The translations under genes were made by a program, and so were the position numbers. Of a stretch of 64,000 bases of DNA, positions 13,772-42,408 are shown in pieces (position 1 is the stretch's first letter; each line of letters begins with the position of its first letter). The notes beneath the pieces are model-generated. The model was not told the DNA's origin, searched no databases, and worked only from the letters and a program-made list of their open reading frames with translations. Origin of the DNA: Parcubacteria group bacterium GW2011_GWA2_43_13 (GTDB lineage Bacteria > Patescibacteriota > Patescibacteriia > UBA9629 > GWA2-43-13). The stretch lies in assembly GCA_000999025.1 (NCBI GenBank), contig LCFM01000005.1, forward strand, positions 71,087 to 135,086. Direction: 5' to 3'.

Positions 13772-14866
13772 TTATGCTCCATGGCGGAAATGCATAACAT
13801 CTCCATCGCAGACAGCATATTCTTTTCCTTCAACGCGAAGTTTTCCTGAATCTTTTGCGCCTTGTTCGCCATTGTATTCAATAAAGTCCTGATACGCGAT
13901 TACTTCCGCGCGGATAAAATATTTTTCAAAATCAGAATGGATTACTCCTGCGGCCTCTGGCGCTTGCGCGCCTTTTTTAATTGTCCATGCCCTGGTTTCT
14001 TTGGGGCCTGATGTAAAAAATGTTATGAGATCGAGGGTCTCGTATGCTTTTTTGATTAAACGATTCAATCCCGTATCATTGAGTCCCAATTCTTTTAGAT
14101 AGACACTGACTTCTTCTTGATCTAATTCTGAAAGTTCTGCCTCAAGTTTTGCGCAGATGGTAAGTCGTGTGTTGTAGAGACGCCCAAGGGGGGCGTCTTC
14201 GTCTGAGACGCCCAAGGGGGGCGTCTCTACAGGTTGTTCATCACTATTATACACTTCAATAATCGGTTTGAGAGTGAGGAGATTATATGGTTTTAAGAGT
14301 ATCTGTTTGTCGTCAGTGAATGGTTGCGATGAAATAGGAGTGCTATTGTTTAAAATGTGTTCAAGGGTTTGAAATAGTTCAAGCTCTTTGAGCGCGTCTT
14401 TATCTCCGGTTCGCGATTTTGCTTCAAGAGTATCAATACGTTTCAGTACAACAGCAAGGTCGGCCATTGCAAGTTCAGTGATGATGGTTTCGCGATCTGA
14501 TTCTGGATCCACTTTTCCTTCCACATGAATAATGTCGTCATTATGAAAATCACGCAATACATGGCATATTGCATCAACCCCTCTGATGTGAGAAAGAAAT
14601 TGATTTCCCAGACCCTCTCCTTTATGCGCGCCTTTGACAAGTCCGGCGATGTCTACAAATTCGATGGTTGTTGGAATGATTTGAGCCGAATGAGATATGT
14701 CTGAAAGTTTTTGAAGGCGATCATCCGGAACGGCAACAACGCCAACATTCGGGTCAATGGTGCAGAATGGAAAATTTTCCACAGCGACTTGTTTTTTTGT
14801 CAACGCGCGAAAAAGTGTTGATTTGCCAACATTGGGAAGTCCGACGATGCCAATTTGAAGAGACAT
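13772..14866 (-). CDS. ychF: Ribosome-binding ATPase YchF (Obg family), carrying an in-frame palindromic repeat insertion
   Basis: The N-terminus is MSLQIGIVGLPNVGKSTLF, followed by the G4/G5 motifs. A 57-nt hairpin repeat at 14174-14230 is translated in-frame as ...VETPPLGVSDEDAPLGRLYNTR... Confidence 0.9.
   Translation of the reverse strand: MSLQIGIVGLPNVGKSTLFRALTKKQVAVENFPFCTIDPNVGVVAVPDDRLQKLSDISHSAQIIPTTIEFVDIAGLVKGAHKGEGLGNQFLSHIRGVDAICHVLRDFHNDDIIHVEGKVDPESDRETIITELAMADLAVVLKRIDTLEAKSRTGDKDALKELELFQTLEHILNNSTPISSQPFTDDKQILLKPYNLLTLKPIIEVYNSDEQPVETPPLGVSDEDAPLGRLYNTRLTICAKLEAELSELDQEEVSVYLKELGLNDTGLNRLIKKAYETLDLITFFTSGPKETRAWTIKKGAQAPEAAGVIHSDFEKYFIRAEVIAYQDFIEYNGEQGAKDSGKLRVEGKEYAVCDGDVMHFRHGA
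14174..14230. repeat. Family A palindromic element (GTAGAGACG-N-CGTCTCTAC) with an internal tandem duplication, in-frame in ychF
   Basis: The sequence GTAGAGACGCCCAAGGGGGGCGTCTTCGTCTGAGACGCCCAAGGGGGGCGTCTCTAC is read directly. Confidence 0.9.
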
Positions 14867-16921: not shown

Positions 16922-18469
16922 ATGAATAAACGTATTCGCATTGCAGGTGTTGGTTTTCTGACACTTGCCATAGTTTTTGCAACAATCGCCATGTCAGCGC
17001 CTCGCGGCAGTGCCGCAGAGCGTGTGTATCACGGTGTGTCAGCGACAACTGTGAATGGCCGCGATATTGTTGTACTCTCAAATCAGCAAGGCATTGAAAC
17101 CTTGGAGATCTCAGGCAATAAGCTGATTAAACGCGGTGAAGCAAACCAACCGGGCAATATTATGGTTGGCGTGTATGCGCGCTCTCAAGGATCAAAAGCT
17201 GAAGCGTATGTCGCCGCCGGCCCGAATATCTTGAAATTTGATATTTCAGATATTAATGCGCCAAAAATGGTTGCTTCTAAAGTGTATTTTGGACATGCCT
17301 ATGATGTTCATGCCGCAGGGCAGAGCGATATTGTGTTCGCAGGAACACGGGGCATAACACTGCATGAAGCCGACTCACTTGATCAGTTGAGCAATTATTT
17401 TGTTCAACCGGCGTATGGCGTTGCGCAGATGAAAAGCGGAGCCATGGTTGTAACAACCGATGATGAAGCATTGGTCATTAAAAAGAATGGCGCAATTACT
17501 CATCGCCAGGCATTAAGCGGAAGCGATAAACGATTACGCAAACCATATGCTGATCAATCTGGAAATAGTTATGCGCCTGGTGATGATATGTTTATCAAGG
17601 TTGGAACAGGAGTGAATTTTTCAAACTGGTCAGGGTATACCTATGCCATGTCAGGCGTTGACAGTGAACCGTATGTATATGGCGTGAACGGGTGGGGAGT
17701 GTATAAATTAGGGAAACAGACACTTGCGCTTGATGATTTTACTTCAATCAATGAGCGCGGCGGATGGGCAACAAATGTTACCGCATTCCCGACATCATCT
17801 GGTATTCGCGTTGTTGTTACTGCAAAACAGCAGGTCTATCTGTTGGATGAGCACTTGAACATTTTGGATACCTATACCTATCAACCATATCCATCAACCA
17901 GCGGAGTGGTGGTGTCTCAGGCGGACTCGCAGATTGAATCACCAAAAGGGAAAGCGTTGAGCGCGTGGGTATCATCTCATGATGTTAGATACAATACCTT
18001 TTTTAGCGCATATGGATCAGGTTTTTGGCCAGGAGAAGAAGTGACTGCTGAATTTGGGCCCTATCACCCTGTGCAGTATCCGCAGACGCCAAGTAAAATT
18101 TATCCGAATCCTGACAATGCGTCTGAAATCGGATGGGCTGACGCAAATGGAAATGTGAAAGTGGCGAATATATATGTAAAAGAATTTCCTCTCATGCGAA
18201 CTGATATTTCGAACGTCATGCAGGTAACATTGTATGGTAAGCAATCAGGGTTAACCTATTCAACTAATATCAATGTTCTTCCTGGCGTAAAGCCCGCAGA
18301 AATAAAGAAAGACGAACCAAAGAAAGATGAAACAAAAAAAGTGGTTGAATCAAGCAAGCGGTGCGAACGTACTATTGAAAAGACCACCGAAGAAATTATT
18401 CGCGATGGCAAGAAAGTGGTGATTGAAAAAGTGGTTGAAAAGGAGACCTGCACACAGGAAACAAAATAA
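16922..18469 (+). CDS. Secreted hypothetical protein (signal peptide, Lys/Glu-rich C-terminal tail)
   Basis: The N-terminus MNKRIRIAGVGFLTLAIVFATIAMSAPRGSAAE is a signal peptide, and the C-terminus is KKDEPKKDETKK...; no family is recognised. Confidence 0.5.
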   Translation: MNKRIRIAGVGFLTLAIVFATIAMSAPRGSAAERVYHGVSATTVNGRDIVVLSNQQGIETLEISGNKLIKRGEANQPGNIMVGVYARSQGSKAEAYVAAGPNILKFDISDINAPKMVASKVYFGHAYDVHAAGQSDIVFAGTRGITLHEADSLDQLSNYFVQPAYGVAQMKSGAMVVTTDDEALVIKKNGAITHRQALSGSDKRLRKPYADQSGNSYAPGDDMFIKVGTGVNFSNWSGYTYAMSGVDSEPYVYGVNGWGVYKLGKQTLALDDFTSINERGGWATNVTAFPTSSGIRVVVTAKQQVYLLDEHLNILDTYTYQPYPSTSGVVVSQADSQIESPKGKALSAWVSSHDVRYNTFFSAYGSGFWPGEEVTAEFGPYHPVQYPQTPSKIYPNPDNASEIGWADANGNVKVANIYVKEFPLMRTDISNVMQVTLYGKQSGLTYSTNINVLPGVKPAEIKKDEPKKDETKKVVESSKRCERTIEKTTEEIIRDGKKVVIEKVVEKETCTQETK

Positions 18470-19805: not shown

Positions 19806-20477
19806 ATGAACAATCGTCTTTTTAGTGTGCAAGATGTGATAAAACCGCTTGTATCGAGTTGGGGAATGCTTGTGCTTGGCACAATGCTTTTTGCGTTGCT
19901 CGTGGTTGGTATTACGCTTATTCAGCCACTGAAATATAGCTCAACGGTTCGGCTTCTTGTGATTCAAAAATCAGACAGCGTTGTTGACCCGTATACATCT
20001 TCTCGCGGAGCGGAAAAAATAGCTCAATTGATTACCCAAATTGTGCATTCTGATTCTTTTATGGAAAAGGTTGTGAGTTCAGGGTTTCAGGTGCGAGATG
20101 ATTATGGTTCTGATCTTGATGCACGGAGAAAAAAGTGGAATAAGACCATTGAAGCGCGGCAGGTTCCGGAAACAGCAATTATTGAATTGTTTGTGTATCA
20201 CATTAGTGTTGAGCAGGCGCGCAATATTGTAAAAGCGGCATCAACTGCATTGCAAACAAAGGCAAGTGAATATCACGGAGCAGGGGAAAATGTGCAGTTG
20301 CGCGAGATTGACGGAGCTGTTGTTTCTCGTTTCCCTATAAAACCAAATGTTATTTTGAATGCTATTGCAGGAGTGATTATTGGGTTGTGTGTAAGCGGTG
20401 GGTTTATTGTCGTGCGCGCGCGAAAACGTGCTGATATGAATGAGGCAGTGCGGATTCGGGTGATGGGGGATGTGTAA
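19806..20477 (+). CDS. Wzz/chain-length-determinant-like membrane protein
   Basis: It has an N-terminal transmembrane segment with a Wzz-type motif (SSTVRLLVIQK) and a C-terminal transmembrane segment. Confidence 0.6.
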   Translation: MNNRLFSVQDVIKPLVSSWGMLVLGTMLFALLVVGITLIQPLKYSSTVRLLVIQKSDSVVDPYTSSRGAEKIAQLITQIVHSDSFMEKVVSSGFQVRDDYGSDLDARRKKWNKTIEARQVPETAIIELFVYHISVEQARNIVKAASTALQTKASEYHGAGENVQLREIDGAVVSRFPIKPNVILNAIAGVIIGLCVSGGFIVVRARKRADMNEAVRIRVMGDV

Positions 20478-20552
20478 CACACCCCTGTATCCCCTCTCAA
20501 GAGGGGATGTCGTCCGCACTCCCTCCTTGAGGAGGGGTTGGGGGAGGTGTTA
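20478..20552. repeat. Family B composite MITE-like element with terminal inverted repeats ACACCC...GGGAGGTGT and two internal hairpins (CCCCTCTCAAGAGGGG; CCCTCCTTGAGGAGGG)
   Basis: The sequence is read directly; it marks the left edge of the high-GC island. Confidence 0.85.
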
Positions 20553-20720
20553 TTGGGGGGATGCAAATGTGCAGGAATATACAATCGCATATTGGTAATG
20601 TGCCATTGTATATCTCTGCAGAACCGTGTTTGTAAAACGGAAAGCAGGGATTGTTTCATTGACAATTTCGTTTTTTTCGTAACAAGGCGCTTCGCGCGCC
20701 GTCACAAGGAGCAATTTCCC

Positions 20721-21440
20721 ATGATAAAGGGGATCCTTCTCGCTCTCGTGGCGCTCCTCGGAGCGCCGGTCTCGGGGTTCGCCGGCGATTACGCCGGATT
20801 CCTGTTCTCGACCGAGCAAACCCCGTACGACGAGCAATCGTTCGTGTCGGGTGTCTTTCTCGGTACGAAGCAGGAAAGTGGTTTCTCCGGTTCGCTCGCC
20901 GTCGGCGCGTTTCAACCTCTACAGGAGGTGACGCGCCAGAAGTCCGACATCGCGGTGATCCCGCGAGTCGGGTTCTCCTATGGCGCGTTCGCGACGTCGT
21001 TACGGATTTTCGCTTCGCCGAAGAACGCGTACCACGGTACGCTGGGCGGCGAACTCTCGATACCTACGGAATGGCCGATTGATGTCGTCATTGACGGTGG
21101 GTATACGTTCGGATGGGGATTGAACTCCCCTGACGGACGATACCGTCTCGATGGCTTGAGCGTCGGCACTGGTGTCGAGTTCGGCGGCGGGTCTGTACGC
21201 GCTAAAATCCTTGGCACATTCGAGGCATCCAACGCCTCAGTAATGTCCAAGGGCAAGTCGGCGGTTTCCACCGCTCGACACTGGCACGTCGGTCCACAGA
21301 CAATAATCGTGTTTCGACCCGAAGGTTCAAACTGGTGCATTCAGCCCTCGATTGGGGTTGGTGTCATCGGGAAGAACCTGAAGGGAGAGGAACTCGATCC
21401 GGAATTCTCGTTCGGTTTCCGGGTCTTCACCCGGCGGTAA
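20721..21440 (+). CDS. Secreted Gly-rich protein, putative outer-membrane beta-barrel-like (high-GC island gene 1)
   Basis: It has a signal peptide MIKGILLALVALLGAPVSGFAG, a repeated amphipathic beta-strand pattern, and a C-terminal FSFGFRVF. GC is about 62-65% against about 45% in the flanks, and the RBS AAGGAG precedes the ATG. Confidence 0.5.
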   Translation: MIKGILLALVALLGAPVSGFAGDYAGFLFSTEQTPYDEQSFVSGVFLGTKQESGFSGSLAVGAFQPLQEVTRQKSDIAVIPRVGFSYGAFATSLRIFASPKNAYHGTLGGELSIPTEWPIDVVIDGGYTFGWGLNSPDGRYRLDGLSVGTGVEFGGGSVRAKILGTFEASNASVMSKGKSAVSTARHWHVGPQTIIVFRPEGSNWCIQPSIGVGVIGKNLKGEELDPEFSFGFRVFTRR

Positions 21441-21452
21441 GGAGTCACGGCG

Positions 21453-22695
21453 ATGAGACGTTTCTCATATCTCGGATTGGCGCTCGTATTCGTCGTCGGG
21501 CTGGCCGGGTGCTGGCCCGACTCTGACATTGACAACACCGAAGTGCCGACCGGTCCGCTCACGCTCAAGGTAGACACCAAGAGCGTTGAGCAGATTGCGT
21601 CGCTCATGCAGAGTGGTGCGCTTGCGGCACCGCCTGCGCGGCCTACGAAAGTCAAGGCGACAACGCGTTGGTTTGACAACGCGAATGTTCGCCAATCGGC
21701 ACAATCAGAGGCGAGCATCGGCGAGCTGATTACAGTCGCTCGCCCCCTCGACCGTTCCTATATCGTCAATGTCGCCGACATGGACAACCGGTCACTGACC
21801 GGGATTGTTCGTATGGCGACTCGGGATGGGCTTCCGAAAGCCGTAATCCCGCAACGCGCTTTTCTTCCGATGATGGAAGGGTTGGTGGTCGCAGAGAAGG
21901 TGGACGGTTCGTTCGACTTCCCTACGGCGCCGATCCAACCAGTCGTTGGTACTGGCGTTGACGGGAAAATCTTCATCCTCGAGTTCGAGGTTGAGGTTCC
22001 TGTCGCGACGGTTACCGCCGGCGGAAACGCGGACACGTTGGTCGCGAGCGCGACCGTGTCCCACGCTCTCGGCGATTCTAGATGCGAAAATTCGGGTTCG
22101 GGTACTCGGCACACGCGACGACGCTGGCGTGATCACGGTGGCCACAGGGGAGTGGGTTACTCTCCCCAAAGTGGACGCTACGATCACTGTGTCTATGGCG
22201 TGGGCGAATGGGGTGATCGTCCCTACGCCTGTAACTCCTGTTTCCGGATTCCGCTGGGAGCTGATCCAAGGCGCCCTCGATCTGCTTTACGCGGCAGATG
22301 GGGGCGGAGGAACTCCCAATCCTCCTACTGGAGGTGCCACTATCGAGGACATCGGCGGAAAATGGCAGATTGCAGGGATCACTGGGGCCGGCAATCTGGG
22401 CAAGAACGTCGCGATGTCCGAGGTTTTGCAGGTTGAGGTGATGTGGAAGGCGGATCCGACCGCTAACCCAACCCTCATCCCTGCGACATTCGCAGTCGGA
22501 GTTGACGGGAAACTGTCAGCGACGACTGCCGATATCGTCCCGCGAGGAGGGGTCGGGAACTTTCGATTCTACCTCAAAGACGGATCGCAAGCGTGGTTGA
22601 ACCGGGATTCGGTAACGAAGATCGGTGCGATACGTTTCGCGAATGTCGGTGGGGTGGAAGGGTTCGCAACCCCCTTGACTAACTCTCACGAATGA
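21453..22695 (+). pseudogene. Lipoprotein (lipobox VGLAGC) disrupted by a +1 frameshift near 22075-22081 (high-GC island gene 2)
   Basis: Frame 0 reads ...ATVSHALGDS and then an Arg-rich nonsense tail. The protein-like continuation ...DAKIRVRVLGTRDDAGVITV... is in the +1 frame and runs to 22695. Confidence 0.6.
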
Positions 22696-23408
22696 AAGGG
22701 TGTGTCGTGAAAGTAAGGATTCTCGCGCTCATGTTCACGTTCGTCGTCGGGCTGGCCGGATGTTGGCCCGGAGCGGACACGCCGTCCGCCCCGCCGATTG
22801 ACGACGGCGGATCCGGCGGGGACAACAGCGACGGATCCGGTGGGGGAGGTGGCGTCATCGTTGGAGACAACGACGCCGCTGAGCTTGCCGGATTCGAAAA
22901 AACTTTCGGGACAGAAACCACGTCGGTGTTCGTGTCGTCATCCGACGGCATGGACACCAGGAGCTATGGCCAATGGCGGAAGGATTCCGCATTTGGTGCC
23001 CCCGCGGCATCTCGGGCTGAGATCGAATCCGTCATCGCGGCCGGTGTCTCTGTCGGGCTCCGGATTGCCGGACCCGACGGCAAGCAGACCGCGACGACCC
23101 CGGCAGGGATCGTTTCATGGTTCCCTGGTGACCGGATGGTCGTCAAGACCTCCGGAATCACCGGCGAGCCCATCGAGACGAAGTATTTGCGCGGGGGGCT
23201 CGAGATTGACCCCGCCACCCGAGTTGGGGAAGGAGCAAACTTTGTCGTCTACCAAAAGGGTAGCGGCCAAGTGCTGTACTGGCTCCTCCTCCACGGCGAT
23301 CCGGATAAACCGGTGCCGTACTTCCGCATCTTCGGCGCGGCGGATTGGATGATCTCCAACCGCAGTGTCGCGGGCAAGCTGGAGTACGGATTCTTTAAGC
23401 GAGAATGA
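22692..23408 (+). CDS. Lipoprotein, paralog of the previous gene (same FVVGLAGCWP signal/lipobox; Gly/Ser/Asp-rich linker) (high-GC island gene 3)
   Basis: The signal-peptide region is nearly identical to the upstream gene, and the GC is high. Confidence 0.6.
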   Translation: MKGCVVKVRILALMFTFVVGLAGCWPGADTPSAPPIDDGGSGGDNSDGSGGGGGVIVGDNDAAELAGFEKTFGTETTSVFVSSSDGMDTRSYGQWRKDSAFGAPAASRAEIESVIAAGVSVGLRIAGPDGKQTATTPAGIVSWFPGDRMVVKTSGITGEPIETKYLRGGLEIDPATRVGEGANFVVYQKGSGQVLYWLLLHGDPDKPVPYFRIFGAADWMISNRSVAGKLEYGFFKRE

Positions 23409-23429
23409 CGCAACGTCATCTCTCACATC

Positions 23430-23490
23430 AACCCGTTCAACTGTGTGCTGAAAACGTTCAGTATTACAGTTGACGGGTTTATTTTTTTAT
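23430..23490 (+). terminator. Terminator after the island (AACCCGTTCAACTGT ... ACAGTTGACGGGTT followed by TTTATTTTTTT), with a nested CTGAA-AACG-TTCAG hairpin
   Basis: The stem-loop plus T-run is read directly. Confidence 0.65.
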
Positions 23491-23561
23491 TGTATAATAT
23501 TTTGTTTTACATGGCCTCCTCAATCCTTCCTTTCGAGAGGATGTAGGGGGTGTAGAGACGT

Positions 23562-23607
23562 GGCGGTGCCACGTCTTGTCGGAGACGTCCCATCGGGACG
23601 TCTCTAC
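23562..23607. repeat. Family A element (GTAGAGACGTGGCGGTGCCACGTCTTGTCGGAGACGTCCCATCGGGACGTCTCTAC), preceded by a family B fragment (23525-23561)
   Basis: The sequence is read directly; it marks the right edge of the island, upstream of the ligase-like gene. Confidence 0.85.
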
Positions 23608-23616
23608 ATACAAAAT

Positions 23617-25206
23617 ATGTCTTCATTTTTTAAAATATATTGGCAGTGGATTGCTATAGGGTTGGTCGCGTCTGGAGGAGTTGTATTGATAGGAGGGAAA
23701 ACAGCTCTTATTGTTTTTGTGTTGGTTGTTATTTCCGCCACACTGTTTATCAAACCAATGTGGCTGATGTATCTATTAGTGCCGTCGCTGTTTTTAGAAG
23801 CAGAGCAGTTTTCAATTTATTTTGGCAACTGGCGTGGGCGCGGGTATCATTTTTTGATTGGAGTGTTGGTTGTGAGGATGGTTTGGGAATTTATAAGCAA
23901 GAGAATAACACCTTCCGCCCCTTCGGGGCACCTTCCTCAAGGAAGGAGCCGTCGAATCCCCTCTCGAGAGGGGGTAGGGGGTGTGTCTGGGTTGGACAAG
24001 GCGTTGATTGCGTTTTTGTCAGTGCAGGCGGTTGCGATTTTGGTTTCGCCTGATAAAATGTTCAGCATAAAAATTTGGGTATTGCAGGTGTTACTTACCC
24101 TGCTGTTTTGGTGTGTTCGATATTTTGTCAAAACATCCACAGAATGGAAACGTTTGCTGAATATCTTTTTAATATCAAGCGTTGTTGAGGCGTTAATCGG
24201 GTTTTGGCAAGTGTTTGCGTTTTATCTTCAAAAAACAACTGGCATAGTTGTGCGCTGGGGAGAGGTGTTTCACGCGCAGATTTTGCAATTTGGTAGGCCG
24301 TACGGCACATTTGTTGAAGCGGACTGGTATGGCGCGTTTATGGCAATTCCATTGATGATGAGTGTTGTTTTGATGGCAGGCGCGCAGTCGAAAAAAACGC
24401 GTGCAGTGTATGGGGTATTAGGTATGGTTTTTGGTATTGCAGTAATCATCTCCGGTGTGCGTGCTGCATGGATCGCGGTGATTGTTGCGAGTGTAGTTGG
24501 TGTGTTTGTGTTGCGGGGCACGAATGGGGCACGAACCCGCCGAATCGGTGGGCGAATACCTCACCCCCCCCCTCTCCTTGTAAAGGAGAGGGGGACGACG
24601 ACACCTCCCTCCCTCCCTCCTCAAGGAGGGAAGATGTCGCATGTATTATACGGAGAGTATAAGCATTTGGTGGGGTTAGGCAGTGTGTGCGCTTTGGTTA
24701 TTGTGGTTCTACTCGCAATAGCATCGCCTACATGGGTTGGGCAGATCGGCGAACGATTTATTAGTATATTTAACCCTTCTACATGGGCGCATGAGCCGCG
24801 GGTCGCGACAACTCAAAAGGCGTTTGAATTGATTGCGCAATCGCCGATTATTGGTCATGGTCCGGGTAGTTATAAAATTTTAGGGATTGTGCCTGATGTT
24901 GATTCATCGCAGTATGATTATTATGGCGTTTATCCGTATTTGACGAATTATTTTTTAACGGTGTTGCATGATTCAGGTATTATCGGTTTTGCTGTGTTTT
25001 TGTGGTTGTTGTGGGAAGGGGTGAAGTTTAGGGCAAGATCTTATAAAGGAGAGGGGGCGGCGGTTGTGATGGGGGTGGTGGTGCTGATGATTGCATATTT
25101 GATTACAACCGGGTTTTGGTTGGGAATGACATGGTTTTTGTTTGCTTTATTATGCACAAATAGCTCACGAACCCGCCGAATCGGCGGGCGAATGGCTCAC
25201 GAATGA
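23617..25206 (+). CDS. O-antigen ligase/polymerase-like (Wzy_C-type) polytopic membrane protein with three in-frame repeat insertions
   Basis: It has multiple transmembrane segments. The repeats are translated in-frame as ...PSAPSGHLPQGRSRRIPSREGVGGVSG..., ...RGTNGARTRRIGGRIPHPPPLLVKERGTTTPPSLPPQGGK... and a C-terminal ...SRTRRIGGRMAHE. Confidence 0.6.
   Translation: MSSFFKIYWQWIAIGLVASGGVVLIGGKTALIVFVLVVISATLFIKPMWLMYLLVPSLFLEAEQFSIYFGNWRGRGYHFLIGVLVVRMVWEFISKRITPSAPSGHLPQGRSRRIPSREGVGGVSGLDKALIAFLSVQAVAILVSPDKMFSIKIWVLQVLLTLLFWCVRYFVKTSTEWKRLLNIFLISSVVEALIGFWQVFAFYLQKTTGIVVRWGEVFHAQILQFGRPYGTFVEADWYGAFMAIPLMMSVVLMAGAQSKKTRAVYGVLGMVFGIAVIISGVRAAWIAVIVASVVGVFVLRGTNGARTRRIGGRIPHPPPLLVKERGTTTPPSLPPQGGKMSHVLYGEYKHLVGLGSVCALVIVVLLAIASPTWVGQIGERFISIFNPSTWAHEPRVATTQKAFELIAQSPIIGHGPGSYKILGIVPDVDSSQYDYYGVYPYLTNYFLTVLHDSGIIGFAVFLWLLWEGVKFRARSYKGEGAAVVMGVVVLMIAYLITTGFWLGMTWFLFALLCTNSSRTRRIGGRMAHE
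23908..23984. repeat. Family B composite element (ACACCTTCC...CCTTCCTCAAGGAAGG...CCCCTCTCGAGAGGGGG...GGGGGTGTG), in-frame in the ligase-like gene
   Basis: Sequence read directly. Confidence 0.85.
24524..24640. repeat. Compound insertion: family C (CACGAACCCGCCGAATCGGTGGGCGAAT) plus family B (CCTCTCCTTGTAAAGGAGAGG; CCCTCCTCAAGGAGGG), in-frame
   Basis: The sequence is read directly; a second family C copy lies at 25163-25202. Confidence 0.85.
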
Positions 25207-25214
25207 GATGACAT

Positions 25215-26549
25215 ATGAAGATTTTACAAATAGATAAATTTTATTATCCAAAATACGGCACTGGAAAACATGTGTTTACTTTGACGCGGGAATTAGAAAA
25301 ACAGGGCCATACGGTGATTCCTTTTAGCATGGAGGATGAAAAAAACGAACCAACGCCGTGGTCAACGTATTTTGTAAGCAATGTTGATGTTTCAAAAATA
25401 TCGTTTTCCTGGAAAGGAATAAAAATCGCGTTTCGTATGATCTATTCATTTGGGGCGCGAAGGAAAATTCGGGAATTGATAGAAAAGGAAAAACCAGACA
25501 TCGCGCATATCCATTTAATTCATCACCATATCTCTCCATCCATTTTATATGAATTAAAAAAACAAGGCATTCCGATTGTGCAAACAGTGCATGATTATAA
25601 ATTGATTCATCCGAATTATTTTATGTGGTGCAATAACGCGCCATGTGAAAAAGTTCGTAAACATCGGTGGAATAAATTGATTTTTCATCGTTGTATGAAG
25701 CATTCGTTGGTCGGGTCAATCTGGCTTGGGATTGAGACCACGATCCATGCTCTTATAGGTGCGTATAAAAAGAGCATTGATGTGTGGATTGCGCCGAGTG
25801 AATTTGTCAAGCGGATGTTGGTGGAGGGTGGGTATCCGGAGGAGAAGATTGTGGTGTTGCCGCATGCCTTGGATATGCACGAATTACTCACGAATGATTA
25901 CGAATTGCGTACAAATAACACCTCCCTTCGTCCCTCCTCAAGGAGGGAGCCCAGTGTTCCCCCTCTCAGAGAGGGGGGAGGGGGTGTGTCAGGGGTGGAT
26001 GGGTATTTGTTGTTTTTTGGACGTTTGTCTCCAGAAAGGGGGGTTGATCGGTTGTTGGATGCTTTGAAAGAAATGCCAGATATGCCGTTGATTATTGCGG
26101 GCGATGGCGAAATGGGAGCGCAACTTAAAGACCAAGTAAAAAAGAATGGACTGCGGAATGTTGAATTTGTTGGATATAAAAGCGGGCAAGAATTAAAACA
26201 GTTGATTCATAATGCACGGGCTGTGGTGGTGCCAACTCTTTCACACGAAATTTTTGGTATGTCCGCATTGGAGGCAATGGCATTAGGCAAGCCGATTATC
26301 GCATCACATAGAGGGGCATTGCCTGAATTAGTTGAGAATGGTAAAAATGGCTGGCTGATTGATCCTGAAAACAAAGATGAATTTCGTATGGCGCTTAAAG
26401 AATGTATGAGTCGTGATGATCTTATTGAACAGTTTGGCAGGGCATCTCAACAGAAAGTAAAAGAGTTGACAATTAATAAATATTGTGCCAAAATAGTCGG
26501 TTGTTATTCAGAGTTAATTACAGCAAAATATGGCAGAGAATCATCATAA
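25215..26549 (+). CDS. Family 4 glycosyltransferase with an in-frame repeat insertion
   Basis: The protein has the GT4 fold (EX7E-type C-terminal region GMSALEAMALGKPIIAS). The repeat at 25920-25988 is translated as ...TSLRPSSRREPSVPPLREGGGGVSG... Confidence 0.8.
   Translation: MKILQIDKFYYPKYGTGKHVFTLTRELEKQGHTVIPFSMEDEKNEPTPWSTYFVSNVDVSKISFSWKGIKIAFRMIYSFGARRKIRELIEKEKPDIAHIHLIHHHISPSILYELKKQGIPIVQTVHDYKLIHPNYFMWCNNAPCEKVRKHRWNKLIFHRCMKHSLVGSIWLGIETTIHALIGAYKKSIDVWIAPSEFVKRMLVEGGYPEEKIVVLPHALDMHELLTNDYELRTNNTSLRPSSRREPSVPPLREGGGGVSGVDGYLLFFGRLSPERGVDRLLDALKEMPDMPLIIAGDGEMGAQLKDQVKKNGLRNVEFVGYKSGQELKQLIHNARAVVVPTLSHEIFGMSALEAMALGKPIIASHRGALPELVENGKNGWLIDPENKDEFRMALKECMSRDDLIEQFGRASQQKVKELTINKYCAKIVGCYSELITAKYGRESS
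25920..25988. repeat. Family B composite element (ACACCTCCC...CCCTCCTCAAGGAGGG...CCCCTCTCAGAGAGGGG...GGGGGTGTG)
   Basis: Sequence read directly. Confidence 0.9.
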
Positions 26550-30187: not shown

Positions 30188-31897
30188 TTATGAAGTTATA
30201 TGTTTAATCATATATATTTTTTCTAATTCATATCCTAATTTTTTATAGTATTCTCGTGTTCCAATGCCGGAAATGACAGCCATTTTTTTGTAGCCATGAT
30301 CTCGTGCAATGCTTTCTGCTTTTTGGATGAGTTGTTTGCCCAAGCCAGTATGCTGGGAAGTGTACACCTCTTTGCCGTTCAACGGGGTTAGTTGACCATA
30401 ACTATGCACTTCTCGTATGATAGCACATCCTTTAAGTTCTGAAATAAACGGATGGGTGATGTTATCTGGTAGGCGAAGGCGGAGAAATGCGTGGAGGATA
30501 CGGCTTTCGCCCCCCCTCCTGCCCGAGGAGGGGGTAGGGGGTGGTGGGAGGATATTTATTTTTTCATACCTCACCCTACCCTCTCCTATTTTAGGAGAGG
30601 GTGACGACGACGTCTCAAACGATAAAAAGTATTCTTTCCCGCCGGTTGTGTCAATCGGTTCAATGAAACATTCAGCGTTACTTGAATCAATAGATTGATT
30701 TCTTCCCAACTCCTCTCTGCATCGTATACATTTGCACAGCAATCCTTTTTTTTGCATGTGCGCTTGAATATGCTCGCGCAGATTTGAAATTTTTGAACCG
30801 GCAATAATACTGGTCGCCGGAATATCACGGATGAGTCGGGCAATACGGACGTAGGGTGGGATAATGGTATGTTTGACATGCGCAAGAAGGGTTATCAATT
30901 CATCGTCTGTGTATGGTTTCCATATACCATCGCGCCACATTTTTTCCATAATGGGCGTGAAAGAGGGGAGTACTGTGGGGTATATTTTCATTTCATCTGG
31001 TTTAAAATCCGGATGCTGGAAAAGTTCGTTGTACATCTCGGTATCTTTTTGGAGATTTGACCCTGGAAGGTTTGGCATGGTATGGTAATTGATTTTAAAG
31101 CCAGCGTCTTTGAGCCAACGCGTTGCATCACGAACCTGATCCCGAGTTTGGTCACGTTTAATAAGGGTGAGAACATCATCATGCGTTGATTGTACGCCTA
31201 ATTGCACGCGGGTCGCGCCAAGGGCGCGCATCCGTTTTATTTCTGTTTTTGTAATATGATCGGGCCGGGTCTCAAGAGTAAGTCCAACACATCGGTGTTG
31301 CGCTGTTTGGTTGATGTCATGCGTTTCTTTTAGTAGTTGATTATGGGATGAGCGGTATGGTGTACAGTGCGTAGTATCATAATGGAAAATAAAATCATTC
31401 ATTGCCTGAAAACAACGTTTAATAAACCATGTTTGATACCGGCGTGGGTAAAATGACCATGTCCCACCAAGTACAATAAGTTCGATTTTTTCCGGCCGAT
31501 GCCCATTTTCATAAAATGAGTGCAAACGGATGACAATTTGTTTATAGGGGTCAAATTGTTGTTTAAGCGCGCGTGCCGCGGCTGGTTCATTAGAGAGGTA
31601 GCTTTTGGGCATGCCACGCTCTGTAGGGCAGTACACGCACCTGCCGGGGCAAGGGAAGGGCTTGGTAAGCACAGTGACGGGTGCGACTCCTGAAATAGTT
31701 CTGATAGTGCGGCGTTTTAACATGTGCAAAAAAAGCGGGTCTGGCGTAACTTCTCCTTTTTTGATACGTTCATGGTAGTCCTTCAGTAGTGCCCGATTGG
31801 GTGGGATAGGGATATGTAAAGTACGCGCCCATTTGCGTTTTGCCGCATGGAGATCGTTTTTTGTATGGATTGTTTCGGAGAGAAGGTGGATAAGCAT
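30188..31897 (-). CDS. Elp3-homolog: radical-SAM plus GNAT acetyltransferase (tRNA carboxymethyluridine synthase-like), with an in-frame repeat insertion
   Basis: It has a radical-SAM CxxxCxxC (CPGRCVYCPTE) and a C-terminal GNAT fold. The repeat block at 30509-30620 is translated as ...SSSPSPKIGEGRVRYEKINILPPPPTPSSGRRGGESR... Confidence 0.8.
   Translation of the reverse strand: MLIHLLSETIHTKNDLHAAKRKWARTLHIPIPPNRALLKDYHERIKKGEVTPDPLFLHMLKRRTIRTISGVAPVTVLTKPFPCPGRCVYCPTERGMPKSYLSNEPAAARALKQQFDPYKQIVIRLHSFYENGHRPEKIELIVLGGTWSFYPRRYQTWFIKRCFQAMNDFIFHYDTTHCTPYRSSHNQLLKETHDINQTAQHRCVGLTLETRPDHITKTEIKRMRALGATRVQLGVQSTHDDVLTLIKRDQTRDQVRDATRWLKDAGFKINYHTMPNLPGSNLQKDTEMYNELFQHPDFKPDEMKIYPTVLPSFTPIMEKMWRDGIWKPYTDDELITLLAHVKHTIIPPYVRIARLIRDIPATSIIAGSKISNLREHIQAHMQKKGLLCKCIRCREELGRNQSIDSSNAECFIEPIDTTGGKEYFLSFETSSSPSPKIGEGRVRYEKINILPPPPTPSSGRRGGESRILHAFLRLRLPDNITHPFISELKGCAIIREVHSYGQLTPLNGKEVYTSQHTGLGKQLIQKAESIARDHGYKKMAVISGIGTREYYKKLGYELEKIYMIKHITS
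30509..30620. repeat. Double family B element (CCCCCTCCTGCCCGAGGAGGGGG ... CCCTCTCCTATTTTAGGAGAGGG)
   Basis: Sequence read directly. Confidence 0.85.
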
Positions 31898-32995: not shown

Positions 32996-34141
32996 ATGAT
33001 TGTTCACATGGTTACCGGCATTGGATTGGGCGATGCTCGTGTCAACTGCGTAGTGGAAAAGGCAAAGGCATTGGGACTCAATGCAACGGCAAGAGTTGTT
33101 CATGGGACACATTTCGTTACCGTCGAGGTGTATGTTTTCGACAGTAACGGAAAGAGCGCTGGTGAGTTTTCGACGCATATTTTCGAGAATCTACCTGGCG
33201 TCGAAAGTGTGGCGCGGGTTACGCCGTCGGCGGTCAGGATGGCATGTACAAATCCTGATGATGCCAGGCGTGTTACTATCGGGAAGCATCAAATCGGTCG
33301 CGGTTTGCCGTGTCGGCTTATCACAGGACCGTGTACTGTAACGAGGGACGTTGGCCGATTGATTCCGATGATAGTAGATACGGGGGCGATGTGGATTCGT
33401 GGCGGTTGCTGGAAGCCACGAACCAGAGCCAATTCGTTTCGCGGGTTTGGTGTGTTGGCCGTTGAGTGGCTTCTCACTGCCGCGCGCGAGAACAACGTTG
33501 AAGCTATATTCATCGAAGTCATGGATACACAGCACATTGCCCAAGTGCGGGCAGTGCAAGAGTCCGTCGGCTTTGAAGGCGCGATTGTGCTTTGGGTGGG
33601 CGCGTGGACATCAAATCAGGCCTTGCTCGAAGCGCTTGGCAAGCAGGATAGATACACGGTGATGCTGAAGCATCATCCCTGGGATATCGGGATTGATGGC
33701 ATGATAACGCGAGCCGAATTCGTCCTTGCAGGAGAAATGGAATGGGATGAAAGAGGGGAGTTGATTCCAGAGGCAAGCACACCGCAGGGCAACAGCAATG
33801 TTTTACTGTGCGTGCGGGGAGTCAATAAACCCGAATCAAGCCGACATACCCTGTATCGGTTTATGCCGAATGCGGAATGGATCAGCGCACTTCACCAACG
33901 GTGTTGGGCACCTGTGGTTTGGGATCCGTCTCATATCGCTGGTCATACAGACCTTGTGTGGGGAGTTTTAGCTGAAGGGTTGAGATATCGGCCAGAAGCG
34001 GTCATGGTCGAATGTTGGTTCGACCCCAATGATCCTCGTAAGCCACTGTGCGATGCTGAACAGGCGATTCCGATGAACCAAGTGCCCACGTTGCTAAAGC
34101 TTATTGAGGGACACAACCAAAATCTCACAGAACAAGCGTAA
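32996..34141 (+). CDS. 3-deoxy-7-phosphoheptulonate (DAHP) synthase, type I-beta-like with an N-terminal ferredoxin-like domain
   Basis: The motif GGCWKPRTRANSFRGFG matches the KPRTS-PYSFQG signature of the DAHPS/KDO8PS family. An N-terminal domain of about 90 aa is present, and GC is about 53%. Confidence 0.6.
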   Translation: MIVHMVTGIGLGDARVNCVVEKAKALGLNATARVVHGTHFVTVEVYVFDSNGKSAGEFSTHIFENLPGVESVARVTPSAVRMACTNPDDARRVTIGKHQIGRGLPCRLITGPCTVTRDVGRLIPMIVDTGAMWIRGGCWKPRTRANSFRGFGVLAVEWLLTAARENNVEAIFIEVMDTQHIAQVRAVQESVGFEGAIVLWVGAWTSNQALLEALGKQDRYTVMLKHHPWDIGIDGMITRAEFVLAGEMEWDERGELIPEASTPQGNSNVLLCVRGVNKPESSRHTLYRFMPNAEWISALHQRCWAPVVWDPSHIAGHTDLVWGVLAEGLRYRPEAVMVECWFDPNDPRKPLCDAEQAIPMNQVPTLLKLIEGHNQNLTEQA

Positions 34142-38710: not shown

Positions 38711-38936
38711 AGAAAATAATACTGTTTATAATAAATAGAGATGTAAGATTCTCGATACGGGTATCCTATCGTTCCATTTATTATAAAAATAATAATAGAT
38801 GATCATTAGTCAGGAAGCCGTTTGTGTGCGGATTTCTCCGCAAACATACTTGCCTGTCCAATGATAAAGAAACATGTGTTTCGTCTTAAAATACCTTTAG
38901 AAAGGTGTCTCGAGACGAAGTACATGAGTGGAATTT

Positions 38937-39090: not shown

Positions 39091-40878
39091 CTATTTTAAT
39101 GTTCTTTTTGTTTTGATATACCATTCTGCGATACGCGCAAACCTGTCAGACGGAGTTGCAATACTTGTTTGAGTAAATCCTTTAATTGCTTGAGGAAGTA
39201 CATATGTATATGTCGGCGAGTATAAAAATACTGCAGGAATATCTTGATTGAGAATATCTTGAAATTGTTTATATTTTTCTCCCCGTGTTTCCGGATCAAT
39301 TATTTTTCGCGCTTCTTCAAGGAGCGCGTCTGCCTTTTTATTTGAAAAAAGCGAAAGATTTAATCCCGGTGATTGTATTTGAGATGAATGCCAGAATGGA
39401 TACGGGTCAGGATCAGGTCCTAATACTTCTCCGTAAAGAAGCGCTTCGTACGCGCGTACATTGATAATATCTGATGTAATTTTTTTATGTGAGACCAAGC
39501 GGACGTAGGTAATGATTCCGACGCTTTGTAAATCCGTTCGGATGGTGTTTGCAAGGGCAGTCATTTCCGGCTGATCGACTGTAGTAATGGTGAGAGATAA
39601 CAGAGAACCTTGTTTTATGCGATAGGATGAAATGTCGTCCGGCAGTTGCGGAGCGGTGTCTGATGAAATCGTGTTTTTATTTTCTTCATCTTGAGCGTCC
39701 TCATCTGTTTTTTTACTTGCTTCATACTCATCTTTTGAAATAAGTTTCCACCCGGCTTCTATTAAAAGTTGCTGTGCGCGTTCTGTGTTGAATTCATAGC
39801 GCGTCACACTATCATGGTAGCCGATCGCATTTTTAGGAATAGGCGCGTCAATAATTTCAATGGGCGCCGATCCTGCGGTATTGGCGAGTGCGGGTTTATT
39901 GATTGCGTGAGCAATGGCAGTTCGCACTTTTTTATCTTTGAGAGCGTCATTATTATTTTGATTGAAAAAGAGAGCAGTGTATTGGGGGAGGGACAAGGTG
40001 TGAAAGTTAAGGGAGTTCGCGCCTTTAAGGGAACCTTTTAAATTTGGAGGAAGAAAGCTCAATCCATCTGTACTGCTGTTTTCTAATGCATTCACAGCGC
40101 TTGTGAAGTCAGGATAAAATTTGAATGTGATGTCTTTGAGCATTGGCCCTGTTGCATAGTAATGCGGGTTTCTCTCCAAGGTGTATTGTTTAATTGATCC
40201 GTTGCTGTCTTTGGAAAGAGATTTAAATTGATACGGGCCGCTTCCGATAGGGTTAATAAGGTTAATACGCGCAAGCGTCGCTGACTTTGGATCAATAGAG
40301 CTCCAGATGTGTTCAGGAAGAATACCAACAGTCAGTGTGGAGAGAAACGGAGCAAAGGGTTGTTCTAATTGAAATTGGATTGTCTGCTCATCTATTTGTT
40401 GTATTTTTACGTTTTTAAAATTAGGATATAGCGGACTTTTATAATTTTGATCTTGGATCGCGGCGATGGTGAATAACACATCATTGATAGTCACGGATTT
40501 GCCGTCATGCCAGATGATGTCGGAACGGAGTGTGATGGTATACGTTTTTTGATCATCGGCAATAGTGTATTTTTCCGCGAGATCGGGGATAAATGAAGCC
40601 CCGTCATATTTTAAAAGTCCGGAAAACACCAGATGTGAGATGTCGCTATCCACTTCATTTGATGAGGCGTACAGGGGATTGATGTAGGTTGGTTGCCCAA
40701 CAATGGCTTCAATGTATTTTCCGCCAATAGCAGGAGCTTCTTGTGTATTTTGCCATACAATATGAACAGCAAGAAGCGCAATAAGGATGATGGCGGTGAC
40801 ACTTGTGGTATATAAAATACGCTTTTCTTTTTGCGAAAGAAATCGTGTTAAATAACGAAGTTGTGGAATGCTGGGCAA
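39091..40878 (-). CDS. ABC-transporter substrate-binding protein, family 5 (oligopeptide-binding, OppA-like), membrane-anchored
   Basis: It has an N-terminal transmembrane anchor and SBP_bac_5-type length and motifs; no cognate permease genes are adjacent. Confidence 0.7.
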   Translation of the reverse strand: MPSIPQLRYLTRFLSQKEKRILYTTSVTAIILIALLAVHIVWQNTQEAPAIGGKYIEAIVGQPTYINPLYASSNEVDSDISHLVFSGLLKYDGASFIPDLAEKYTIADDQKTYTITLRSDIIWHDGKSVTINDVLFTIAAIQDQNYKSPLYPNFKNVKIQQIDEQTIQFQLEQPFAPFLSTLTVGILPEHIWSSIDPKSATLARINLINPIGSGPYQFKSLSKDSNGSIKQYTLERNPHYYATGPMLKDITFKFYPDFTSAVNALENSSTDGLSFLPPNLKGSLKGANSLNFHTLSLPQYTALFFNQNNNDALKDKKVRTAIAHAINKPALANTAGSAPIEIIDAPIPKNAIGYHDSVTRYEFNTERAQQLLIEAGWKLISKDEYEASKKTDEDAQDEENKNTISSDTAPQLPDDISSYRIKQGSLLSLTITTVDQPEMTALANTIRTDLQSVGIITYVRLVSHKKITSDIINVRAYEALLYGEVLGPDPDPYPFWHSSQIQSPGLNLSLFSNKKADALLEEARKIIDPETRGEKYKQFQDILNQDIPAVFLYSPTYTYVLPQAIKGFTQTSIATPSDRFARIAEWYIKTKRTLK

Positions 40879-41297: not shown

Positions 41298-42408
41298 CGC
41301 TGGTTCATATGATAGTATCCACCTAAGGGTTGTTCACCCGTATGAAAGGCAGATACTCTGGAAGCCATATGACTATCTATGGCTCAATCCTCCCAGGCGC
41401 GATTTCCATTGCCCGTTGGGCAAACAAAATCCAGCCTCTCACAGCACAAGCTAAACATACATTAAAGGTACTCGACTGGCACCGCACCCACGGCAACAAT
41501 ATCTCTTTAACCGCGCGTCATTTCTGCCTTACCAGAAAGACGGTTGCCTCCTGGCAGTATAAATTCAGTTGCTATGGTCCAATCGGGCTCAACCAACAAT
41601 CACGAAAACCTAAACACCTCCGACAACCCACTACCTCGAAACAGATAACATCAGAGGCAGTAACCCTCAAAAAACAATATCCAGCTTGGTCTAAATACAA
41701 AATTCAGAAACTCATGGAACACAAAGGTGTTAAAACTTCAGCCAGCACCGTTGGTAGAATCTTTAAGCGTAAAGGATTGATTAACAAAAAAGTGTCTGCT
41801 AAACGAAGGAAAGCCGCTATTCGTCCAAAAGCAAGATTTCCGCGAGGATTCAGGGTTTCCAACCCAGGAGATATGGTTCAAATTGATACGAAACAGGTTA
41901 ATCTTATCGCAGGCAGAAAGCTTTACCAGTTCACTGCCATTGATGTCTTAACCAAGCAGAGAGTGTTACGATACTATCCCTCGCTCTCCTCAAAAAATGG
42001 CTCTCTGTTTTTACAGGAATGCATAGAAACCTTCCCTTTTACCATCAGGGCGGTACAGACGGATAACGGATCAGAGTTCCTTAAATCCTTCCATGCCACG
42101 TGTCTTGAACGAACTATCCCTCATTACTTCATCTATCCTCGCACCCCTAAACAAAATGCATATGTGGAAAATTCCCACGGCTCGGACGAGAAAGAATTCT
42201 ACCTACAAGGCATTGTCTGTTCTAATCTCCTCGTTATGCAAACACGACTGAAACAATGGCAGAATACATGGAATGAAATCAGACCCCATGCCGCACTCAA
42301 CTACCTCACCCCCAAAGAATATTTTATGAAGTGGCAACATGGTAGATTGCCTACAAAAGACACCATAACTTTACAAACCTAACTGGATACTATGTATCTG
42401 AACCTGGA
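41298..42408 (+). mobile_element. IS481-family insertion sequence (single transposase ORF; imperfect terminal inverted repeats of about 20 bp, GGTTCATATGATAGTATCC / GGATACTATGTATCTGAACC)
   Basis: The IRs are read at 41302-41320 and 42385-42404, and the element is inserted between secG and pcrA. Confidence 0.7.
41330..42382 (+). CDS. IS481-family transposase (N-terminal HTH + DDE integrase core)
   Basis: It has an HTH region and an rve core (DMVQIDTK...FTAIDVLTK...QTDNGSEF) in a single ORF. Confidence 0.85.
   Translation: MFTRMKGRYSGSHMTIYGSILPGAISIARWANKIQPLTAQAKHTLKVLDWHRTHGNNISLTARHFCLTRKTVASWQYKFSCYGPIGLNQQSRKPKHLRQPTTSKQITSEAVTLKKQYPAWSKYKIQKLMEHKGVKTSASTVGRIFKRKGLINKKVSAKRRKAAIRPKARFPRGFRVSNPGDMVQIDTKQVNLIAGRKLYQFTAIDVLTKQRVLRYYPSLSSKNGSLFLQECIETFPFTIRAVQTDNGSEFLKSFHATCLERTIPHYFIYPRTPKQNAYVENSHGSDEKEFYLQGIVCSNLLVMQTRLKQWQNTWNEIRPHAALNYLTPKEYFMKWQHGRLPTKDTITLQT

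Follow-up and report, generated by a model that had tools for sequence, protein, structure and literature searches.

Comparison with described systems

Surface-polysaccharide loci are a classical hotspot of genetic exchange, and acquired genomic islets are the described systems closest to the element presented here, an island of ~2.72 kb and high GC content (positions 20690–23410) that carries three genes, designated A, B, and C, in a 64-kb stretch of the genome of Parcubacteria group bacterium GW2011_GWA2_43_13 (contig LCFM01000005.1; this whole stretch is referred to below as the window). Like such islets, the island shows a sharp compositional step at gene boundaries and atypical third-position GC content (GC3) and tetranucleotide usage, encodes accessory exported proteins, and is inserted in a surface-polysaccharide locus. 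It differs from them in that its borders lack an integrase, a tRNA, direct repeats, and an insertion sequence, in that neither a donor nor a relative with an empty site was found in the databases and contigs searched, and in being old and conserved within its clade. In addition, its GC content has decayed less than free amelioration, a concept said to go back to Lawrence and Ochman, would predict. The account that we consider probable is that this three-gene operon came from a GC-rich donor, was inserted between a Wzz-like and a Wzy-like gene before the separation of the lineages in which it is found, and has been kept by vertical inheritance.

Phage morons, exemplified by lom (an outer-membrane protein (OMP) barrel) and bor (a lipoprotein) of phage lambda, offer a second comparison. 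As in these, the island is a unit with its own terminator and with a GC content unlike that of its neighbors, and it encodes envelope proteins, namely a β-rich protein with a signal peptide and lipoproteins. In contrast to morons, it is not located in a prophage, since its neighbors are xseAB, glycosyltransferase genes, folD, and glyA; it has no matches in PHROGs, phage records, or IMG/VR, and resembles neither the Ail/Lom nor the Bor family. Identification of the island as a phage moron was rejected on account of this chromosomal housekeeping context and of the lack of phage homologues in these searches.

Composition and borders of the island

The GC content of the segment 20690–23410 is 59.8%, compared to 43.5% for the rest of the window. 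Each 300-nt window between 20700 and 23400 has a GC fraction of 0.57–0.64, with the flanks at 0.36–0.53, a rise from 0.42–0.51 on entering the segment, and a return to 0.44 past it, and none of the other 1-kb bins of the window exceeds 0.53. The four coding segments of the island have GC fractions of 0.585–0.618 and GC3 of 0.62–0.72, corresponding to z = 4.8–7.0 when compared to a reference set of the 40 other open reading frames (ORFs) of the window with at least 150 residues (mean GC 0.439, standard deviation 0.027; mean GC3 0.403, standard deviation 0.046). The elevation is not limited to third positions, as GC1 and GC2 of the island genes are also raised, and the highest GC3 among the other genes of the window, rpoB/C, recA, and groEL included, is 0.55. 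The tetranucleotide L1 distance of the segment 20701–23400 is 0.632 (window median 0.195, 95th percentile 0.337), which makes it the strongest tetranucleotide outlier within the window. The high-GC island described in a first-pass annotation of this DNA, made from the letters alone, is thus borne out by GC windows, GC3, and tetranucleotide distance; its count of 39 G or C in the 60 positions 20761–20820 is exact, and the sliding-window comparison that it had proposed identifies the segment as an extreme outlier.

The compositional borders fall at the first start codon and at the last stop codon of a compact operon. Gene A (20721–21440, + strand) is preceded by the Shine–Dalgarno motif AAGGAG at 20706–20711 (+ strand), 9 nt 5' of the ATG at 20721, the canonical ribosome-binding site (RBS) noted in the first reading; the motif is kept in the second lineage described below (L011). 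Gene B (21453–22695, + strand) begins 12 nt after gene A, with another AAGGAG overlapping the stop codon of A, and the stop codon of B overlaps the start of gene C (22692–23408, + strand) as ATGA. The three genes therefore form a single operon. The onset of the GC step is located ~170 nt past the repeats that follow the Wzz-like gene, with a low-GC leader in between, and the earlier placement of the island start directly after these repeats, which are genome-wide and vary between lineages, does not hold.

Continuity of the island with the chromosome

The first reading had also considered a chimeric assembly join at the flanking repeats. In such a case, a fragment from a co-occurring high-GC organism would have been joined into a Jacksonbacteria scaffold there. 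Some features of the assemblies point in that direction. Four public scaffolds (L002–L005) have N-gaps at 20698–20770, exactly at the left GC step, where a perfect 8+8 palindrome, GGCGCTCC-TC-GGAGCGCC, is located, and in one of them (L002, 7861–7955) a local mis-extension leads past this palindrome into unrelated GC-rich sequence. Assemblies break repeatedly at two spots of the island, and the contigs broken near 22085 are accompanied by a 110-nt deletion at that place in the window. The left junction is hard to assemble, yet the join is reproduced. Exact copies of protein C are present on 19 contigs, and among the ten of them that were listed, which represent different samples and assemblies, the context is the same in 10/10; the sources of the protein C contigs include metagenome-assembled genomes (MAGs) at NCBI, ENA scaffold re-assemblies, MEGAHIT k127/k141 contigs, JGI, and Logan. 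Among the listed contigs with the exact Wzz protein, to which all statements on Wzz-bearing contigs refer, the island lies downstream in all but L027, which ends soon after Wzz.

Contigs without Ns, obtained from different samples, run identically across either both junctions (the MEGAHIT contigs L021, which is taken from a contig of 118 kb, and L011) or a single one (L008 and the MEGAHIT contig L026, the latter across the left junction). The lineage represented by L011, which is only ~78% identical to the window, has the same junctions, and the short contigs L016 and L017 have the same right junction and terminator. The borders correspond to an RBS and start codon on one side and to a stop codon and terminator on the other, in operon orientation, and the junction is constant while the flanking repeats vary between lineages. 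Gap-free contigs from independent samples, including one from a second sequence lineage, refute a chimeric join, the probability of which we regard as negligible. A word of caution concerns the deposited scaffold, in which the 110-nt deletion splits gene B; the public MAG annotation of the locus is inconsistent.

Age of the island and selection on its genes

The second lineage (L011, matched by L012–L014) shares ~78% DNA identity with the window across the region and carries the island at the same site, with A' of 241, B' of 445, and C' of 233 residues, GC3 of 0.67–0.73, and host-like flanks at 0.36–0.40. In two further versions (L016 and L017, both from SRR22388340, another project), the end of B and gene C are present, followed by the same terminator and by a flank of low GC content, with GC3 of gene C at 0.70 and 0.69, respectively. 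The synonymous divergence (dS) between the window and L011 is 0.81 for A, 1.09 for B, and 0.32 for C, and the corresponding values in the flanks are 1.15 for xseA, 0.85 for a 515-residue protein, 0.40 for the gene of a family 2 glycosyltransferase (GT2), and 0.47 for Wzz. The ratios of nonsynonymous to synonymous divergence (dN/dS) in the same comparison are 0.15–0.25 in the island, with 0.15 for protein A, and 0.11–0.15 in the flanks; in core domains they are about 0.1–0.13, the domain of C being at about 0.13. Since the island is present in both lineages with dS equal to that of its flanks, it was present before their split, and its genes are functional. Judging from these sequence comparisons, the island is old within the clade, vertically inherited, and under purifying selection.

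The first-pass annotation had taken the compositional signature for that of a recent acquisition. A recent, strain-level transfer of a surface module would agree with the strong contrast, with the limited apparent amelioration, and with the confinement of the proteins to a very narrow set of sequences among 5.8 billion. It conflicts with the presence of the whole island, at the same site and with the same GC content, in two lineages and of its 3' part in two more, with third-position p-distances of 0.21–0.51 between the versions of gene C, with the equal dS of island and flanks, and with the finding that all listed Wzz-bearing contigs reaching past Wzz carry the island. A recent transfer would have given the island a phylogeny incongruent with that of the flanking genes and much shallower, and the opposite is seen. 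The only recent event seen is an exchange between lineages that involved the 3' half of C and the terminator. The age put forward in the first reading must accordingly be revised, and a recent transfer is very unlikely.

The traces of that exchange are clear in the alignment of the window with L011. Codons 151–238 of C (window 23145–23408) are 100% identical, and the tract that begins halfway along C, includes the terminator, and reaches into the first part of the Wzy-like gene (to ~24100; L011:8396–9566) is 94.6% identical overall, compared to ~78% upstream. Such a pattern indicates a recent recombination tract between the two lineages and, with the low identity of the C-terminal domain of B described below, is evidence that the island has evolved as a mosaic.

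Probable foreign origin of the island

A horizontal origin, as proposed in the first reading, is the explanation that best fits the composition. It is favored because the contrast spans all codon positions as well as oligonucleotide usage, because the borders match the start codon of A and the stop codon of C, and because no other gene of the window comes near the composition of the island. In the scenario that we consider probable, the chromosome of a member of Candidatus Jacksonbacteria (Parcubacteria, candidate phyla radiation (CPR)) would have taken up the segment from a much more GC-rich donor before the split of the two lineages with a whole island, and probably of all four; this uptake would have been followed by vertical inheritance, some recombination between lineages, and purifying selection.

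Substitutions in gene C, polarized by parsimony on a four-taxon tree, comprise 80 changes from GC to AT and 38 from AT to GC, with 45 and 20, respectively, at third positions. As parsimony over-counts changes from common to rare states, these counts were compared to a stationary simulation. Counting all positions, the GC-to-AT fraction of 0.68 exceeds the expected 0.53 (p = 0.001), corresponding to a net loss of GC. The bias of parsimony accounts for most of the third-position excess, and the evidence for amelioration was therefore downgraded; the evidence for a loss of GC in the island is modest.

These counts are also relevant to a different explanation, namely that the genes are native and that their GC content is held high by selection on codon usage or on mRNA or DNA structure, or else by biased gene conversion at a surface-protein locus that recombines. 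It would account for GC3 values of 0.69–0.73 in four versions of C despite dS near 1 and for the third-position excess that is not significant in a stationary model, and it is compatible with the recombination detected at the locus and with the failure to find a donor. A native origin does not readily explain why the elevated GC extends over all three codon positions and why tetranucleotide usage is altered, with sharp borders at a start and a stop codon, nor why the other genes in 64 kb, with GC3 of at most 0.55, show nothing comparable, and it does not agree with the net loss of GC at all positions. We consider a native origin unlikely, although less so than a recent transfer.

Several observations weigh against the horizontal origin that we prefer. 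At a stationary GC3 of 0.715, the simulation gives an expected GC-to-AT fraction of 0.60 at third positions, from which the observed 0.69 does not differ significantly (p = 0.115), and free decay to a GC3 of 0.40 predicts 0.81–0.91, above the observed value. The high GC content thus looks more stable than expected of a passively ameliorating foreign segment. No signatures of mobility, that is, no integrase, tRNA target, or border-specific direct repeats, were found at the island borders; the tRNA closest to the island is at 38936, and the closest rve-integrase gene is at 41330. Two scans of genome contigs, one with the Wzz protein and the other with the alignment of C, as well as one metagenome scan, yielded no relative with an empty site between Wzz and Wzy, so that the insertion itself is deduced from composition only; the metagenome scan for further lineages returned only the same lineage. 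Finally, the databases searched yielded neither a donor nor remote homologues of A, B, or C.

Homology searches

UV70_C0005G0082 of Parcubacteria group bacterium GW2011_GWA2_43_13, annotated as "hypothetical", has the same sequence as protein A, and identical copies of protein C occur in MAGs of Candidatus Jacksonbacteria, all of them also annotated as "hypothetical". The homologues found among 5.8 billion proteins outside the cluster of the query itself are one for A (78% identical), one for B (72% identical), and three for C (70–87% identical), all of them encoded by the same island. A HMMER profile of B matched only itself among 1.84 billion representatives. Scans of the three proteins against Pfam, NCBIfam, PHROGs, and PADLOC gave only a sub-threshold match of DUF7537 to the signal peptide and linker of C, and sequence-profile searches of the PDB returned nothing meaningful. 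There were likewise no matches in a tblastn search of B against phage records, in a blastn search of the island against plasmids, or in IMG/VR scans, and none of the three proteins has a paralogue within the window. The HMM search proposed in the first reading thus led neither to an OMP_b-brl nor to a lipoprotein family, the best matches being those from the same island.

Protein A and the small outer-membrane β-barrels

Small outer-membrane β-barrels (the OMP_b-brl, OmpA_membrane, OmpW, and Ail_Lom families) resemble protein A in size, in the presence of a signal peptide, in the Gly- and aromatic-rich alternating strands, and in a Phe-rich last strand. Protein A consists of 239 residues (one less than first reported) and is an ORFan. 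Its signal peptide, MIKGILLALVALLGAPVSGFA|GD, is by inspection of the cleavable Sec type, with likely cleavage after GFA at residue 22, and is kept in the homologue P0002. The mature protein is rich in Gly, Ser, Val, and Phe (14% of protein A is Gly) and is predicted to be all-β, with alternating hydrophobic and aromatic strands, the last of which is FSFGFRVF. The AlphaFold model of A, based on a two-sequence alignment, has ~10 β-strands arranged in hairpins at low confidence (pLDDT 32) and gives no reliable topology. The period-2 amphipathicity of the sequence is mild (z = 1.8), above that of 14/14 control proteins and between the values for OmpX (0.9) and OmpA (3.1), both of the latter calculated for Omp sequences entered by hand.

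With these properties, protein A could be seen as a true OMP-type β-barrel and the trio as a Gram-negative outer-membrane module, a barrel with two outer-membrane lipoproteins, that came from a diderm donor. The signal peptide, the Gly content, the alternating strands with their C-terminal motif, the hairpins of the model, and the amphipathicity would all fit such a module. On the other hand, protein A lacks the profile similarity, the terminal aromatic residue, and the confident barrel model that would be expected of this family. No OMP family was matched in Pfam or NCBIfam at E ≤ 0.1 and no sequence in the PDB at E ≤ 10, and hhalign against OmpW, OmpA-TM, and OmpX (sequences again entered by hand) gave probabilities of 0.1–1.1%. 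The top Foldseek matches of the model are not barrels (TM ≤ 0.22) and were disregarded as noise. The C terminus, ...FSFGFRVFTRR (TRL in P0002), has an aromatic residue three positions before the end and none at the end itself. The host group, CPR/Patescibacteria, is moreover regarded as monoderm, without an outer membrane or proteins of outer-membrane complexes (PMC12102498; bioRxiv 10.1101/2021.05.31.446380). Purifying selection in a monoderm host argues for a different β fold, either soluble or wall-associated. We conclude that protein A is likely an all-β secreted protein, and that its identification as an OMP barrel, within a diderm-derived outer-membrane module, is unlikely, slightly more so than a native origin of the genes.

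An even bolder proposal would be that A is a membrane β-barrel which, together with B and C, forms a diderm-type envelope module kept by a monoderm CPR episymbiont. The β-rich and amphipathic strands, the signal peptide, the purifying selection, and the lack of homologues are compatible with this proposal, but nothing speaks positively for it, and we consider it highly improbable. If true, A might, for instance, reach the outer membrane of the host cell by secretion and insertion, or the module might mark an unrecognized outer-layer structure in Jacksonbacteria.

Lipoproteins B and C

Proteins B and C resemble lipoproteins processed by Lgt and LspA in having a positively charged n-region, a hydrophobic h-region, an L-A-G-C lipobox, and a conserved Cys, although their mature domains match none of the known families. 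The segments with the lipobox are MRRFSYLGLALVFVVGLAGC in B (Cys20) and MKGCVVKVRILALMFTFVVGLAGC in C (Cys24), and both agree with the pattern [LVI][ASTVI][GAS]C (VVGLAGC in B); the motif FVVGLAGCWP reported for both proteins in the first reading is present in each of them. Its description of two paralogous lipoproteins is not supported. BLASTP aligns just residues 7–25 of B with residues 11–29 of C, 13/19 of them identical, with the remainder at E ≥ 0.7, and a 40-nt DNA repeat of 85% identity underlies the shared signal peptide and lipobox. B and C are thus not paralogues across their mature parts, which are unrelated.

Intact gene B encodes 450 residues, in which a Gly/Pro linker joins the conserved N-terminal part to a C-terminal domain that has diverged; residues 61–318 are 85–88% identical and residues 336–450 are 48% identical between the window and L011. 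In the window the gene is frameshifted, as 110 nt are missing between 22080 and 22081, where all other assemblies carry 110–112 nt. With the missing nucleotides restored, the reading frame is that of a continuous 450-residue protein (P0003; compare L021:8265–8400), and the deletion explains the overlapping ORFs 21453–22436 and 21946–22695. At the same spot a +2 frameshift is present in L001 and NN in L007, and four MEGAHIT contigs have an end or a beginning no more than ~15 nt away from it (GCCGCG|AGCC). Positions 22080/22081 may represent either a trouble spot of assembly or coverage or a real polymorphism.

Gene C encodes 238 residues, with a Gly/Asp/Ser linker that leads to a conserved C-terminal domain of ~175 residues. 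The signal peptides of its four versions are only 29–58% identical, yet the Cys of the lipobox is kept and is, with Met1, the sole invariant residue in the first 34 columns of the alignment; the corresponding Cys is also conserved in both sequences of B. The invariance of this residue despite divergence of the signal peptides argues that lipidation matters in this host. Two observations count against lipidation. It would need both lgt and lspA, neither of which is among the annotated ORFs of the window, and, while solute-binding proteins of monoderm bacteria usually carry a lipobox, the SBP_bac_5 solute-binding protein encoded at 39091–40878 (− strand) has an N-terminal transmembrane anchor and no lipobox. 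No lipobox protein other than B and C is encoded in the 64 kb. As in the case of A, the AlphaFold model of C, calculated with four sequences, is of low confidence (pLDDT 36), and the Foldseek matches to it were disregarded as noise.

Possible role of the module

The prevailing view of CPR/Patescibacteria is that they lead a life attached to other cells; to our knowledge, their surface proteins are almost entirely uncharacterized. The export signals suggest how the three products might be arranged. A single transcript would run from the leader 5' of A to the hairpin terminator, both of which are conserved. Protein A would be exported by Sec and released by signal peptidase I, and B and C, once exported and lipidated on the invariant Cys, would remain anchored on the outer face of the cytoplasmic membrane. 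Their conserved parts would lie close to this membrane, with the fast-diverging C-terminal domain of B facing outward. The three proteins probably form a cell-envelope or surface module, which may act with the neighboring polysaccharide machinery or in contact with the host cell. No homology or structural support for the function of A, B, or C was found in the searches described above, and this must be set against a surface role; we nonetheless infer that they probably function at the cell envelope or surface. The three proteins are concrete candidates for functions in the envelope or in host contact, and the island is a possible clue to a GC-rich partner or donor. It is otherwise an ordinary, though clean, example of an old acquired islet, domesticated in a narrow clade of Jacksonbacteria. 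What sets it apart is that homologues are completely lacking, that the host is a CPR bacterium, and that the GC content of the island persists unexpectedly.

Leader, terminator, and repeats

The low-GC leader upstream of gene A (20565–20700, + strand) is near-invariant between the two lineages, while the flanking coding DNA is only ~78% identical. It contains an imperfect long hairpin or palindrome of 50 nt at 20570–20620, TATACAAT...ATTGTATA, in which one compensatory change from an A-U to a G-C pair is seen by inspection, and the z-score of its fold is −4.2. An Rfam scan of the leader and of the repeats gave no match beyond a sub-threshold one to whalefall-1. The leader may be an operator or a regulatory RNA leader.

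The operon is closed by an intrinsic terminator of host-like GC content (23430–23490, + strand), which consists of a hairpin (23430–23479) followed by a U-run. Its fold, calculated for 23405–23500, has a minimum free energy of −33.3 kcal/mol (z = −6.25), in agreement with the strong terminator described in the first reading, and it is kept 3' of all four versions of C. A promoter-like sequence, TTGACG-17-TATAAT (23470–23498, + strand), matches the consensus in 11/12 positions and would serve the downstream Wzy-like gene; its −10 element is conserved in 4/4 sequences.

GC-rich hairpin repeats are present at both flanks, as the first reading had noted. They begin directly past the Wzz stop codon (20478–20552, hairpins 20489–20508 and 20521–20536) and recur downstream of the terminator (23529–23604). 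They belong to a family represented by CCCCTCTC..GAGAGGGG, GAGACGCCC..GGGCGTCTC, and TCCGCCAGCTGGCGGA. There are 30 strong GC-rich hairpins in the window, five of which, within the island, are chance palindromes. The hairpin sites are at 14178–14227, 18559, 19621, 20489–20536, 23529–23604, 23958, 24568–24631, 25172, 25931–25977, 27730, 30512–30602, 34162, 35649, 36845, 48636, and 56110. Most of the repeats are found just 3' of stop codons. Several others are in-frame within ORFs (the Wzy-like gene, a family 4 glycosyltransferase (GT4) gene, and the radical-SAM gene), where they insert Gly/Pro/Arg-rich peptides; in this respect they resemble the Rickettsia palindromic elements. The content of repeat copies varies by strain, the Wzy-like gene being called with 528, 529, 548, or 562 residues.

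In the L011 lineage, other repeat units follow the Wzz stop codon, yet the 135-nt leader and the GC step are conserved; the repeats 3' of the terminator likewise differ between lineages. The repeats, a REP-like family of GC-rich hairpins spread through the genome, vary between lineages at a junction that stays constant, and they do not mark the border of the island. For the same reasons, their interpretation as att-like borders was rejected.

Neighboring genes

The window is a stretch of ordinary chromosome, with rpoB/C, ftsK, recA, efp, ssb, xseAB, folD, glyA, uvrABC/D, groEL, pyk, and mutSL. The order of genes in the polysaccharide locus is GT2, Wzz-like, A, B, C, Wzy_C/O-antigen-ligase-like, GT4, and GT4/DUF1972, in accordance with the location between a Wzz-like and an O-antigen-ligase-like gene given in the first-pass annotation. 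The Wzz-like polysaccharide co-polymerase (19806–20477, + strand) has 223 residues, matches Pfam Wzz (2.7e-06) and GNVR (3.9e-05), and has a host-like GC fraction of 0.44. The Wzy_C/O-antigen-ligase-like membrane protein (23617–25206, + strand) matches Pfam Wzy_C (6.1e-08), and its gene contains in-frame GC-rich hairpin repeats at 23958, 24568, 24614, and 25172.

Just upstream of the polysaccharide genes, the window encodes the 515-residue protein mentioned above (16922–18469), which has a signal peptide and a Lys/Glu-rich tail, is without a Pfam match, and is 84% identical in the second lineage; it is another candidate for a surface protein. The gene of an rve-family integrase/transposase (HTH_28/HTH_32 and rve, 41330–42382), located beside uvrD, is ~18 kb away and is not associated with the island. 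Besides the island genes, two genes have a moderately raised GC content by the standard of this genome, one of the DAHP-synthase family (32996–34141, GC 0.52, GC3 0.53) and one encoding a short-chain dehydrogenase with a KR domain (45398–46117, GC 0.53, GC3 0.55), and both may be older or partly ameliorated acquisitions.

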